The notes: generated by a model not told the origin, from the sequence alone. DNA of 61,457 bases from an uncultured Ectothiorhodospiraceae bacterium (GCA_964636675.1 CAZWUO010000002.1:1-61457); one strand, 5' to 3'; numbered from the stretch's first letter, positions 34,674-42,943 are shown. Made by a program: numbers and translations.

Positions 34674-35975
34674 ATGCAAACACATCGGCTTGGCGGAATT
34701 AAGGCGAATGCGGAAACGGGCTTCAAGAAAAAACCTGGTCTAATACAGAAGTGTCAAAAAAATCAGCTGGCTGGCAATCAGGTGATGCAAAGAGCACTAC
34801 TAAGTCATCCATCAGCACTGCAAAAACATCACACCGCTCAATCAGGCTTCAATGGAAATTCGATGCCCTTGCCCTATCTTGCTACGATTCAACGTTCATT
34901 TGGGCGGCATTCAGTTGAAACAGTTCAAGCATTCAATACAGGTGCATCATCGTATGCTAACGATAGACTTAATTCTTCAGGATACTGTGTTGGGGATAAC
35001 GTATCTTTTGCTCGCGCCCCCGGATTACGTGAAGTGGCCCATGAAGCGGCCCATGTTGTTCAACAAAGGTCTAATCTAAATTTGTCGGGCGGGGTTGGGC
35101 ATAGCGGAGATCGCTATGAAATACACGCAGACAAAGTGGCCGACGTCGTAGTGCAAGGGCGTTCTTCGGAACTTCTTCTAGATAAATATAGTAATTGCTC
35201 AAGTGGTAACATCAACCAACTGCAGCTTCAAGAGCAAAGTCCTCGTGCGGAAACTTATCGGGCTCGTTCTCCAGATTATCAGCCACAAACTTATCCTCAG
35301 CCAGATGGAACTGGAATGACTGCACAAGGTCAGTGTAGGCTACCATACGGCGTTCTTCGCTGGGTGTTGGCACCCCGTTATGGATACGTCAATGAAAGGT
35401 TAGAGTTCATTCCAAACGATATTATGGCCCGCATGAATCCGACGATATCTTATATCCAAACGGTTTCCTCAAGCATTTTCAACCCTCCTGGAGAGAGCGA
35501 GGTCGATGTGCTACCAAATGATACCGACCCTTATTATGGGGCACAGTGGAATGAGGAGAGTCAAAGATGGACTAATGAACCTACTTCGGTACAGCATCGC
35601 GATCCCGAATATGACAACATGGATGCTCCCCGCGAAGGAAGTAGACCATACACTGCGGCAACTGGTAATGCGGTGCTTAACGATTCGCCTTCTTTGAACA
35701 CAGGAGAAATTAAATACTTTGAAACTGTTGTGGTAGTGATTGATACAGGTGAAGTACTGGGTAGCCTTAGTTGGAATATTCAGCGCTGGGCAGCTGGGTT
35801 TATGCCTGCAACAATAAATGAATGGTTCGGTTGGAGACAGCCTACTTCAACGATTGTGCGGAATGTGACTTGTACTCCTGGTGCGTCCCCTGAATTCGAT
35901 TCTGTAATTCAACGCTATTATAGAGAGCACCCAGAAGCTATTCGGACCCAGGATGGATCCGTACCAAATCAATAA
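34674..35975 (+). CDS. DUF4157 (eCIS-associated HExxH module) protein with an unknown C-terminal domain; candidate payload 1
   Basis: 433 aa. The DUF4157 pattern is IQRSFGRHSVETVQAF...GYCVGDNVSFA...VAHEAAHVVQQR (HEAAH at 35040-35054), followed by GDRYEIHADKVADVV. I cannot assign the remaining roughly 250 aa to any family. Confidence 0.8.
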   Translation: MQTHRLGGIKANAETGFKKKPGLIQKCQKNQLAGNQVMQRALLSHPSALQKHHTAQSGFNGNSMPLPYLATIQRSFGRHSVETVQAFNTGASSYANDRLNSSGYCVGDNVSFARAPGLREVAHEAAHVVQQRSNLNLSGGVGHSGDRYEIHADKVADVVVQGRSSELLLDKYSNCSSGNINQLQLQEQSPRAETYRARSPDYQPQTYPQPDGTGMTAQGQCRLPYGVLRWVLAPRYGYVNERLEFIPNDIMARMNPTISYIQTVSSSIFNPPGESEVDVLPNDTDPYYGAQWNEESQRWTNEPTSVQHRDPEYDNMDAPREGSRPYTAATGNAVLNDSPSLNTGEIKYFETVVVVIDTGEVLGSLSWNIQRWAAGFMPATINEWFGWRQPTSTIVRNVTCTPGASPEFDSVIQRYYREHPEAIRTQDGSVPNQ

Positions 35976-36013
35976 AGCGCGAGAACAATTGTCCCATGGT
36001 GGTAGGAGTACCT

Positions 36014-36046
36014 ACAACGACTATTGGTTTGATGATAAGTCGTTGT
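36014..36046 (+). terminator. possible stem-loop after payload gene 1
   Basis: ACAACGACT (36014-36022) pairs with AGTCGTTGT (36038-36046). A T-run appears only 15 nt later (36062-36068), so this is weak. Confidence 0.25.
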
Positions 36047-41250: not shown

Positions 41251-41284
41251 AATGAAGGACAGGACATGAAAAAGGAATTAAATC

Positions 41285-42943
41285 ATGAAATATTCACCCA
41301 TGTTTAGAACATTAATGCGTACTTCAAAAAACAATTCCCCACGTTCACACAACGCCGCACACGCGCAATTTACGCCGGTAGATAATCAATCGGTACAACG
41401 TTGGTTACACCAAGATAACAAACCCGCATTATCACTAACTCAAGCGCTGCCACGTTCCGTTAACAATGCATTACGCAGCAGCTTTGGGCCTGACATACGT
41501 CACTTGAGTATCGTCCGTGGTGATAATCGAAGTAACGCGATGTTAGGTTCTCTTGCGCATAGTCGTGGTCGGCAAATATCGCTTAGTTCAAAAGTTAATC
41601 CAACATTGAGTAATCCTGCGGCGATGGAAATATTAGGCCATGAAGTGGCCCATGCCTTAGCTGCAACAACGACCGCGCCCCGCCGTTTGATTAGCACGAA
41701 ACATGATCGCAGTGAACGACAAGCTCATAACATTGGTCAAGCATTTCGTGGCCATGTACAGCACGGTTTTCAATACAGCGCTCCATCGTTAGCGGGTACG
41801 GATCAAAGCAACGCGATGATTCATCGTTTTGAATCTGATGAACATCGTCGCACGGTTGATGATGCTTTATTAAATTTATTACTTCATGCGCCATCGGGTG
41901 AGCTTAGTCCAGAGTTAATTGATACCGCCATGCGTGCCTCTTCACATTTATCTACACCGATTCGGTTAAACAATGGATTGGAAGTCACGCCTGGAGATAT
42001 TACCGCACTAATGGGTGATTTCTATGGCGCGTTCAACGAAGAGGGTATAGACCCTGAAGCCAGTTATCGACAACTCAACAGTCATTTTAACCGTGAAGAA
42101 ATGACCGCTCTATTGGCGGTGTTCGACAGAGAACGGGCCGGTGATCATACTTCCGCATCTGATCTAGAATCCATTACCGCGGATCGCCGTAGTCTGTCTT
42201 ATTTGGAACTCGCCGCCCGTAATGACAGTCATTTTAGCGCCCCACGTCGTGAGGGTATGGACAACAATATGGGCGTCTATACAGAGATGCATAATCTCGC
42301 ACTAGAAGCGGCGGCCAGCGGTGATCGCAATCGGTCTTATATACTAGAATCTATGGCCATGCATTATTTAACCGACCGTCATGCCGGAGGCCACTTAATC
42401 AATAAACGCGGCATCATGGAAGCCTCCGGGCATGATGTTGGCGGTACCACGGCCAATCTGTACGTGTTGTTCTTACACAATATCCTAAACGAAAACGGTG
42501 CGCCTGCCGGCAATATGTTAGGTGATACTTGGGACGCCTATGGCGATGCTAATTGGGATCGACCCGAAAACGCCGAAAATCGATTTCGTACCGCAACGTC
42601 TGTAATGACTTCGTGGGCTGAATTAGATGATGTTTTATCCGGTCGCAGTACTTTGGAAGAAGCTAAGGCGAGTCGCGGTGCGCATAATACCGTGCCGTTA
42701 TTTAATCCTATATTGCAATCAGGTTTAGAAGATTATGCGCGCGATAATATGTCGGCGTGGTGGTTGAATCTCATTTTTGCTGACCAAGCTCCTATTAAAG
42801 GAGTCGCTTCCCGTGCGTGGCATACCAACATTGAACATCCTGTAGAAGACACTGTCACAGATTTCAGCAATGAATGGAGTCGTGGCTGGAATGCACTCAG
42901 TACACCTGAAGGGTGGTATCGTTTGTTTGGTGGGGGATATTGA
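41285..42943 (+). CDS. divergent DUF4157-like protein with a zinc phospholipase-C-like C-terminal motif set; candidate payload 3
   Basis: 552 aa. The DUF4157-like part is LRSSFGPDIRHLSIVRGDN...AHSRGRQISLS...ILGHEVAHALA (HEVAH at 41639-41653). The C-terminal part has NDSHFSAP and AMHYLTDRHAGGH (42359-42394). These resemble the DHFWD and HYFGDxxxPxH zinc-ligand motifs of bacterial PLC/alpha-toxin. Confidence 0.7.
   Translation: MKYSPMFRTLMRTSKNNSPRSHNAAHAQFTPVDNQSVQRWLHQDNKPALSLTQALPRSVNNALRSSFGPDIRHLSIVRGDNRSNAMLGSLAHSRGRQISLSSKVNPTLSNPAAMEILGHEVAHALAATTTAPRRLISTKHDRSERQAHNIGQAFRGHVQHGFQYSAPSLAGTDQSNAMIHRFESDEHRRTVDDALLNLLLHAPSGELSPELIDTAMRASSHLSTPIRLNNGLEVTPGDITALMGDFYGAFNEEGIDPEASYRQLNSHFNREEMTALLAVFDRERAGDHTSASDLESITADRRSLSYLELAARNDSHFSAPRREGMDNNMGVYTEMHNLALEAAASGDRNRSYILESMAMHYLTDRHAGGHLINKRGIMEASGHDVGGTTANLYVLFLHNILNENGAPAGNMLGDTWDAYGDANWDRPENAENRFRTATSVMTSWAELDDVLSGRSTLEEAKASRGAHNTVPLFNPILQSGLEDYARDNMSAWWLNLIFADQAPIKGVASRAWHTNIEHPVEDTVTDFSNEWSRGWNALSTPEGWYRLFGGGY

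Follow-up and report, generated by a model that had tools for sequence, protein, structure and literature searches.

Here we analyze a 61,457-nt stretch of DNA from an uncultured Ectothiorhodospiraceae bacterium (GCA_964636675.1, CAZWUO010000002.1:1-61457), hereafter "the window", in which three consecutive genes directly follow an operon encoding an extracellular contractile injection system (eCIS). These genes, which we call P1 (34674-35975, 433 aa), P2 (36151-41250, 1699 aa), and P3 (41285-42943, 552 aa), are very probably payload (effector) genes of the eCIS located at ~5953-34497. All three lie on the plus strand immediately after the ATPase gene, at the positions reported in the initial annotation of this DNA, and each reaches the Pfam gathering score (22 bits) of PF13699, a family formerly called DUF4157 and now named "eCIS_core" (28.2, 93.8, and 22.2 bits, respectively). 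The strong association of this domain with eCIS loci, which that annotation had also stated, is documented by a published odds ratio of 2614 (PMC8213781). The eCIS operon (5953-34497, plus strand) carries a complete gene set upstream of P1, P2, and P3, and its last core gene encodes a WHD+AAA ATPase of the Afp15/Pvc15/Alg15 type (32350-34497, plus strand; Pfam AAA 96.4 bits, WHD 68.9 bits), the presumed cargo loader. The gaps between the ATPase gene and P1, P1 and P2, and P2 and P3 measure 176, 175, and 34 nt, and no terminator was predicted between these four genes. The interpretation as a cargo or toxin module of the eCIS, first proposed in the initial annotation, is well supported by context together with published experiments on homologous architectures. 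What weighs against it is that the particle location, toxicity, and delivery ascribed to P1, P2, and P3 are argued from this context and from published analogues.

The three proteins share an N-terminal zincin-like module. PF13699 matches span aa 64-133 of P1 (E 2.2e-6), aa 88-163 of P2 (E 7e-27), and aa 55-126 of P3 (E 1.6e-4), within domains delimited at aa 64-160, 88-190, and 55-160. The corresponding signatures read HEAAHVVQQ...DRYEIHAD in P1 (HEAAH at aa 123-127, with the Glu in GDRYEIHAD), HELVHVIQQ...DPHEKQAN in P2 (HELVH at aa 152-156), and HEVAHALAA...DRSERQAH in P3 (HEVAH at aa 119-123, Glu144), the last without the Q of HExxHxxQ. All three retain HExxH and, 15-25 residues further on, a D..E..A helix expected to provide the third zinc ligand of the DUF4157 site. 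P1 and P2 are related by BLAST around HExxH (E 1e-9), and P3 matches at the level of hidden Markov models (HMMs) only. P3 is a borderline and divergent member of PF13699; most of its 36 relatives have precomputed PF13699 matches, and in its AlphaFold2 (AF2) model three strands are followed by the HExxH helix and then by the Glu helix, a zincin-like arrangement. The pattern that the initial annotation had placed at the start of all three proteins is found exactly in P2 and partially in P1 and P3, and it does not stand at residue 1 in any of them, being preceded by a polar leader of 54-87 aa.

This arrangement is familiar from other eCIS loci. The domain was named "PVC-metallopeptidase" by Zhang et al. 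in 2012, who described proteins in which the N-terminal peptidase stays constant and the C-terminal toxin varies, proposed toxin release by autoproteolysis, noted that immunity genes are often absent, and inferred distant targets (PMC3482391). Geller et al. in 2021 described DUF4157 as an eCIS core domain, N-terminal on many toxins and with "linkers" that often exceed 1000 aa (PMC8213781); DUF4157 proteins are moreover encoded preferentially at the 3' ends of such operons, and many are toxic when expressed (PMC8213781, PMC11297309). P1, P2, and P3 resemble these eCIS-associated toxins (PMC8213781, PMC11297309) and PVC-metallopeptidase toxins (PMC3482391) in their N-terminal HExxH(xxQ)...E zincin and variable C-terminus, and both sets commonly show very long "linkers", frequently lack immunity genes, and evolve by recombination, as here. 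They differ in that the C-terminal families of P1, P2, and P3 match no named toxin domain and in that the "linker" of P2 is a conserved multi-domain body. DUF4157 proteins of several organisms have also been linked to particles by experiment. In AlgoCIS, Cgo1 and Cgo2 occupy the tube lumen until contraction, when they are lost, and the toxicity of Cgo1 is independent of HExxH (Xu et al. 2022, PMC8894135). In Streptomyces, Tme and Sle2 co-purify with or bind spike or baseplate proteins (PMC11126660; bioRxiv 10.1101/2025.11.06.686954), and secretion of five DUF4157 proteins depends on the sheath in the haloarchaeon Halogeometricum (PMC11566945).

AlgoCIS is a reasonable analogue, since among solved structures the tube protein of the window is nearest to the AlgoCIS tube. 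Likened by description, Cgo1 and Cgo2 share with P1, P2, and P3 a leader (disordered in AlgoCIS and probably so here), DUF4157, differing C-termini, and several genes per eCIS cluster, and they likewise include one small (498 aa) and one very large (1228 aa) member. Unlike in AlgoCIS, there are three genes here rather than two, the C-termini are of other kinds (phospholipase C-like in P3; a metallo-beta-lactamase (MBL) fold plus hairpin in P2; a domain without assigned family in P1), and loading and lumen location, experimental for Cgo1 and Cgo2, are inferred for P1, P2, and P3. Afp17/Afp18 and the PVC payloads Pnf and Pdp1 are similar in that their genes lie downstream of structural genes and that loading proceeds via an N-terminal leader and the Afp15/Pvc15 ATPase. 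These payloads, however, are without DUF4157, and in the window the Pvc16-like cap gene stands at the 5' end of the operon, so that the ATPase gene comes last.

The leaders themselves (aa 1-63 in P1, aa 1-87 in P2, and aa 1-54 in P3) are polar and of low predicted local distance difference test (pLDDT) score (aa 1-32 of P3 fall below 50 within an otherwise good AF2 model, ahead of a short helix predicted at aa 34-41), and are probably disordered. A Sec-type hydrophobic N-terminus is absent from all three. About 35 residues in, starting at aa 33-40, all carry a common motif, [G/D]N-x3-Q-x2-L, which reads GNQVMQRALL in P1 (aa 34-43; 34773-34802, plus strand), GNLALQSLV in P2 (aa 40-48; 36268-36294, plus strand), and DNQSVQRWL in P3 (aa 33-41; 41381-41407, plus strand); in P2, residues G40, N41, L42, A43, and Q45 are invariant in three close homologues. 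The core of the motif, [GD]NxxxQ, was found in 30 of the 104 DUF4157 leaders collected, usually at aa 33-49, compared to 2.7 +/- 1.5 in shuffled leaders, and it is 15.6-fold enriched in leaders relative to the remainder of the same proteins (Fisher p 6e-20). By analogy with AlgoCIS, the leader with its motif is a likely loading signal; this assignment is weakened by the presence of the motif in only ~30% of the sampled DUF4157 proteins. In the only direct test of this question, a 2026 preprint, AlgoCIS cargo is no longer loaded once its disordered leader is deleted, but it still loads without DUF4157 or the C-terminal domain (bioRxiv 10.64898/2026.05.27.728243). The view of DUF4157 as the loading handle, put forward in the initial annotation, therefore has to be corrected in favor of the leader, and DUF4157 probably has an accessory function in processing, release, or docking to the spike instead of being the loading signal itself.

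Next, we compared the locus with a sister island, L018, found by scanning metagenome contigs with the window ATPase and aligned to the window by blastn, tblastn, and DNA alignments. Its ATPase is 93% identical at the amino acid level and its core genes are ~83% identical at the nucleotide level, and the segment corresponding to 34697-41376 of the window, from P1 codon 8 to P3 codon ~31, is replaced. Downstream of the ATPase gene, L018 retains the intergenic region and the first eight P1 codons, after which a stop codon follows (a 9-codon remnant, MQTHRLGGA-stop). Next come a 161-aa open reading frame (ORF) that resembles a leader-only fragment (IGNFAIQQALL...DLLEREADAVA) and a 1226-aa protein in which the leader motif GNMAMQ and a DUF4157 match of 22.4 bits are accompanied by hydrophobic segments rich in Gly and by a pretoxin-HINT domain (47.5 bits). 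The last gene is a P3 homologue (L018 16941-18503, aligned to window 41376-42938) with 94.6% amino acid and 95% nucleotide identity, above that of the core, and similarity between the two islands restarts at ~41376, exactly at the P3 leader motif, which marks the right-hand breakpoint. Payload genes have thus been replaced as cassettes between close relatives, and the 95% identity of P3 against ~83% for the core suggests that P3 was probably transferred or gene-converted recently as a single payload gene. The payload genes have a GC content at third codon positions of 0.37-0.43, equal to that of the eCIS core, so a recent foreign origin was ruled out by composition. The exchangeable warheads foreseen in the initial annotation are borne out to the extent that L018 has replaced P1 and P2 and kept P3. 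As separate observations, the pretoxin-HINT domain of the 1226-aa protein extends to the stop codon, leaving no toxin domain downstream, and the stretch at L018 12293-16688 contains decay and recombination products, namely the P1-start remnant, the leader-only ORF, and the 1226-aa protein.

Homology between the two islands stops at the P3 stop codon and the flanks beyond differ, which indicates that P3 belongs to and ends the eCIS island. This boundary bears on whether the three genes could be ordinary polymorphic toxins or metalloproteases that merely sit beside the eCIS and are exported independently or not at all. Arguments for such a bystander role come from P3, which is barely above the PF13699 threshold and has a homologue in locus L005 (10001-11947), part of a 5-Mb genome, where no gene of an eCIS lies within 10 kb; this homologue also counts against the payload interpretation. 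Conversely, no Sec/Tat signal or other trafficking domain was found in P1, P2, or P3, PF13699 is highly eCIS-specific, the families of all three proteins are almost always DUF4157-headed, and those of P1 and P2 recur beside eCIS ATPases or sheaths. Together with the exact end of the sister-island homology, this makes the bystander explanation very improbable, and we retain the assignment as eCIS payload genes. The orphan gene in L005 lies 6 kb downstream of a BTAD/AAA_16/TPR regulator.

Beyond the shared N-terminal part, the C-terminal regions (~265, 1500, and 385 aa) are mutually unrelated, as initially described (best E 0.037). That of P3 (aa 170-552) has 36 relatives, nearly all DUF4157-headed, and its AF2 model (pLDDT 80.6 overall, most of the C-terminal domain >90) is almost wholly alpha-helical. 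When this model was compared to the Protein Data Bank (PDB) with Foldseek, the best 17 matches were all zinc phospholipases C (PLCs), including Bacillus cereus phosphatidylcholine-preferring PLC (PC-PLC), Listeria PlcB, and clostridial alpha-toxins. The PLC-like domain (aa 183-490; 41831-42754, plus strand) is supported by Foldseek, by hhalign, and by collinear ligands, the candidate metal ligands being E186/H187, D245, H316, H360, D364, H370, H398, and N402. In a mapping onto a B. cereus PC-PLC sequence identical to 1ah7, H187 corresponds to H14, D245 to D55, H316 to H69 (SHFSAP in P3, SHFYDP in PC-PLC), H360, D364, and H370 to H118, D122, and H128 (HYLTDRHAGGH and HYLGDVNQPMH), and H398 and N402 to H142 and E146. 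All of these P3 residues are invariant in a 35-sequence family, except N402, which is conserved in at least 90%. A local hhalign match between the P3 family profile and PC-PLC scored 33.4 (P 6e-4), compared to no more than 20.2 in 40 shuffles, and alpha-toxin aligned to the P3 profile at the same site. The likeness to zinc PLC, Het-C, and S1-P1 proteins (1ah7, Clostridium perfringens alpha-toxin) comprises a predicted all-alpha fold and SHF, HYLxDxxxxxH, and HxxxN/E motifs collinear with the zinc ligands. A Tox-HET-C domain fused to PVC-metallopeptidase provides a precedent (PMC3482391).

Several observations speak against this assignment. Foldseek, which the initial annotation had proposed for the C-terminal regions, did lead to zinc PLCs for P3, with weak scores (E 0.008-0.15, TM ~0.25), and the C-terminal domain has no Pfam match to Zn_dep_PLPC, S1-P1_nuclease, or Het-C at E<=10, nor does the family profile have a PDB sequence match. 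Compared to zinc PLC, the P3 domain is ~120 aa larger and has Asn in place of the last ligand, Glu146, and the N-terminal Trp ligand has no counterpart because the domain is internal. No family was found in NCBIfam, PHROGs, or PADLOC either, and in the S1-P1 comparison the P3 profile did not match P1 nuclease by hhalign. On balance, we lean towards regarding the P3 C-terminal domain as a divergent member of the PLC/S1-P1/Het-C superfamily, with a lipid or a nucleic acid as candidate substrate. The same C-terminal family bears two head subtypes, HEVAHAL and HE(L/V)xHVxQQ, which points to past head swapping.

P2 comprises, in order, the leader (aa 1-87), DUF4157 (aa 88-190), a Cys/Pro/acidic linker, an MBL-fold domain (aa ~361-690; 37231-38220, plus strand), a coiled coil, a hydrophobic hairpin, a long helical region, and a small C-terminal beta domain. 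The MBL-fold domain matches Pfam Lactamase_B with 26.2-28.8 bits (cutoff 22.7), and all five motifs are conserved (D402; H440-x-H442-x-D444-H445; H608/H612; D631; H664/H665); a helical insert of ~120 aa separates motif 2 from motif 3. Alignments A3 and A5 show no variation at these motifs, and D610, D631, R633, H664, and H665 are invariant in 47 sequences. The hairpin, a putative membrane-inserting, glycine-zipper-like pair of helices (aa 1111-1130 and 1141-1159; 39481-39627, plus strand; Kyte-Doolittle 19-mer maxima 1.59 and 1.68), shows the highest conservation within the family consensus. These features suggest that P2 may be a membrane-inserting giant effector with an MBL-fold hydrolase, similar to Tme (BN159_7576, Streptomyces davawensis; PMC11126660), which is, likened by description, also very long, DUF4157-headed, CIS-adjacent, and member of a cross-phyla family with a coiled coil and hydrophobic helices. 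In contrast to Tme, P2 has an internal MBL domain, no C-terminal EndA-type nuclease, and no detected tape-measure homology, and the window contains a separate tape-measure-like gene. Two results detract from this interpretation of P2: the PDB profile match of the MBL domain is limited to the HxHxDH region and is best for beta-CASP ribonucleases, from which neither subfamily nor substrate can be inferred, and the hydrophobic helices are borderline as transmembrane segments. Outside the MBL domain, P2 has no family in Pfam (segments, E<=10), NCBIfam, PHROGs, or PADLOC, and a PDB sequence search returned the MBL motif region only. A weak LPD22 match (19 bits, below its own cutoff) was disregarded, and weak IrrE, CapP, and SprT matches merely reflect the zincin nature of DUF4157.

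A word-indexed search returned two close full-length homologues of P2 only, and an exhaustive HMMER search with aa 761-1699 yielded 106 cluster representatives (94 with E<1e-10). Members of this family mostly have lengths of 1500-2000 aa and match at an equal relative position, and nearly all long members carry HxHxDH ~250-300 residues after an N-terminal DUF4157. Because this architecture is kept across the family, P2 represents a conserved multi-domain body and not a head, linker, and warhead; its ~1,700-aa architecture is in this respect not freely variable, which limits the notion of exchangeable warheads. The family includes members from Uliginosibacterium, Moraxellaceae, Caulobacter (three species), Accumulibacter, Bryobacterales, and Blastocatellia, and 11 of 14 loci, from Proteobacteria and Acidobacteria, have an eCIS gene nearby. 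Layouts vary, with the ATPase gene upstream or convergent, or with sheath and tube genes downstream. Four loci (L006, L007, L008, and L010) contain arrays of two or three DUF4157 genes around the giant member. In L003 (GCA_024449895.1, JAANSX012420076.1), the P2 homologue directly follows the eCIS ATPase gene without an intervening P1-type gene, and in L001 it is paired with a different small DUF4157 protein. The assembly containing L003 comprises millions of contigs and may be host-associated or eukaryote-derived.

The retention of a ~1,700-aa architecture in at least 100 cluster representatives, eCIS-linked across phyla, with the hairpin as its best-conserved part, would also be expected if P2 and similar giant hydrophobic DUF4157 proteins were components of the injector and not toxins, i.e., a tape-measure-derived translocator that is ejected first and provides the other cargo with a conduit or anchor in the membrane of the target, or a membrane anchor or release protein on the producer side. 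This explanation gains from the Streptomyces proteins Tme and Sle1, which are tape-measure-related, hairpin-bearing CIS effectors (PMC11126660; bioRxiv 10.1101/2025.11.06.686954), and from L018, where P2 has given way to another large DUF4157 protein that likewise contains hydrophobic segments rich in Gly. Yet L018, the closest relative of this eCIS, has no P2 homologue, which argues that this machine can do without P2. The window also has a separate tape-measure-like gene ahead of the ATPase gene, no tape-measure or nuclease homology of P2 was found in Pfam, NCBIfam, or PHROGs, the gene position relative to the operon differs among loci, and the conserved catalytic MBL motifs favor an enzymatic effector. 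We consequently regard an injector-component role as unlikely and prefer to view P2 as an effector. More tentatively, and with clear reservations, P2 could define a previously undescribed cross-phyla giant family (DUF4157, MBL, coiled coil, hairpin) acting as the self-inserting "translocator-effector" of one eCIS lineage, a reading that includes the family traveling with an eCIS lineage ordered sheath-tube-sheath-tube.

P1 consists of a leader (aa 1-63), the DUF4157 zincin (aa 64-160), and a beta-rich C-terminal domain (aa ~215-420). This domain has eight relatives (~60% identity), DUF4157-headed wherever complete, and the relative in L004 is encoded two genes downstream of an eCIS ATPase gene in a locus without a P2 homologue. 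No family was identified for it by searches of PDB sequences, Pfam (isolated segment, E<=10), NCBIfam, PHROGs, or PADLOC. An effector role for P1 is made less secure by its AF2 model, which is poor (pLDDT 51) and beta-rich, and for which Foldseek, in contrast to P3, returned a heterogeneous mixture of beta-sandwiches (E>0.04). An ADP-ribosyltransferase (SSS...ExE) was considered for P1 and dropped, as the spacing does not fit and the Glu residues lack conservation.

A C-terminal domain that appears beta-sandwich-like in this model and has no catalytic signature might be expected of an adaptor, chaperone, or processing protease that docks or matures other cargo, and P1 is the most plausible candidate for such a role among the three proteins. 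The small DUF4157 protein Sle2 binds both spike-complex proteins and the effector Sle1 (bioRxiv 10.1101/2025.11.06.686954), a chaperone role in cis or in trans was proposed by Danov et al. (PMC11297309), and giant members are flanked by small DUF4157 genes in several loci. Against this, P2 and P3 have their own DUF4157 in cis, the arrangements in L003, L001, and L004 show that P1 and P2 are not obligate partners, and the P1 model is too poor for any fold statement. An adaptor role for one or more of the three proteins is therefore rather improbable, and we maintain the payload interpretation for P1 as well.

Taken together, these results are consistent with the following scheme. By analogy with AlgoCIS and PVC, the adjacent AAA+ ATPase would recruit the payload via the leader and thread it into the tube lumen during assembly. 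The DUF4157 domain, as a minimal zincin with an intact HExxH...E site, may act after loading, in effector self-processing and release or in spike docking. Sheath contraction would then expel P1, P2, and P3 into a target cell, where the P3 zinc-phosphodiesterase domain (of PLC, Het-C, or S1-P1 type) could attack membrane lipid or nucleic acid, P2, with its MBL-fold hydrolase followed by a coiled coil and a hydrophobic hairpin, could insert into a membrane, and P1 could contribute a beta-rich effector domain. Over evolutionary time, recombination near the 5' ends of payload genes swaps whole genes between related eCIS loci.

Regarding the nature of the target, the initial annotation took the lack of interleaved immunity-like ORFs as compatible with non-self targets. 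No ORF >40 aa was indeed present in the three intergenic gaps; this absence, however, does not discriminate between target types. Between P1 and P2, a 37-codon ORF starting with ATG (35996-36109) would encode a hydrophobic peptide, MVVGVPTTTIGLMISRCLGHEAFFVIPVWVGMTGMKE, which is too short to judge. Separately, TAAAAT occurs one or two bases 5' of the ATG of both P1 and P2 (34667-34676 and 36144-36153); a promoter scan scored both sites as weak -35/-10 pairs ending at the start codon, and P2 is without a recognizable Shine-Dalgarno sequence.

The remainder of the window comprises the eCIS structural genes and unrelated flanks. A GerE-type response regulator gene (5953-6597, plus strand) lies just 5' of the eCIS operon and encodes a possible regulator, and the 5' end of the operon is formed by a Pvc16_N cap-like gene (7384-7998, plus strand), followed by two sheath genes (9239-12622 and 13259-15307, both plus strand). 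After the sheaths, the plus strand encodes, in order, gp19-type tubes, a CIS_tube+LysM protein, gpD and a spike OB domain, gp25 and baseplate J, one CIS12, and three CIS13 proteins, and then, before the ATPase, the tape-measure-like protein (30435-32384, plus strand), whose match to CIS tape measures is weak. Of the two sheath proteins, the first is unusually long (1127 aa), with its sheath domains confined to aa ~856-1118, and its N-terminal extension includes a FliN/SpoA C-ring segment (FliMN_C, aa 448-486, 30.2 bits, cutoff 23.8). The three tandem CIS13 paralogues (24386-30198; 566, 572, and 747 aa) are probably fiber or receptor-binding proteins; the first ends in a helix-hairpin-helix segment (HHH_3/PsbU-like, aa 510-563), and the CIS12 gene preceding them encodes NHL repeats. 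Beyond the island (43176-57343), a BT1-family transporter gene, an OEP/HlyD/AcrB efflux operon, and a 7TMR-DISM hybrid histidine kinase gene are unrelated to the payload genes. Searches of the window for tRNAs and Rfam families gave no matches.

Overall, DUF4157 payload genes behind an eCIS ATPase have been described since 2012 and 2021 and were shown experimentally between 2022 and 2026, and the window mainly confirms this textbook arrangement in an uncultured marine-type bacterium. Its new details have some value for eCIS mining and engineering. They include P3 as a candidate PLC-like eCIS effector family and the large conserved MBL-plus-hairpin family of P2, whose members may have passed in previous surveys as DUF4157 proteins with a "long linker". 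The leader motif could help define the loading signal, and the mapped breakpoints of the payload cassette exchange, a clean natural case, mark positions at which such loci can be re-programmed. If the "translocator-effector" reading of P2 is true, this protein would be ejected from the tube and its hairpin buried in the target membrane, bringing an MBL-fold phosphodiesterase or nuclease there; taken with its replacement in L018, a large DUF4157 protein that also bears a hairpin, this would suggest a need of each such eCIS for one large membrane-active DUF4157 protein plus small soluble toxins.

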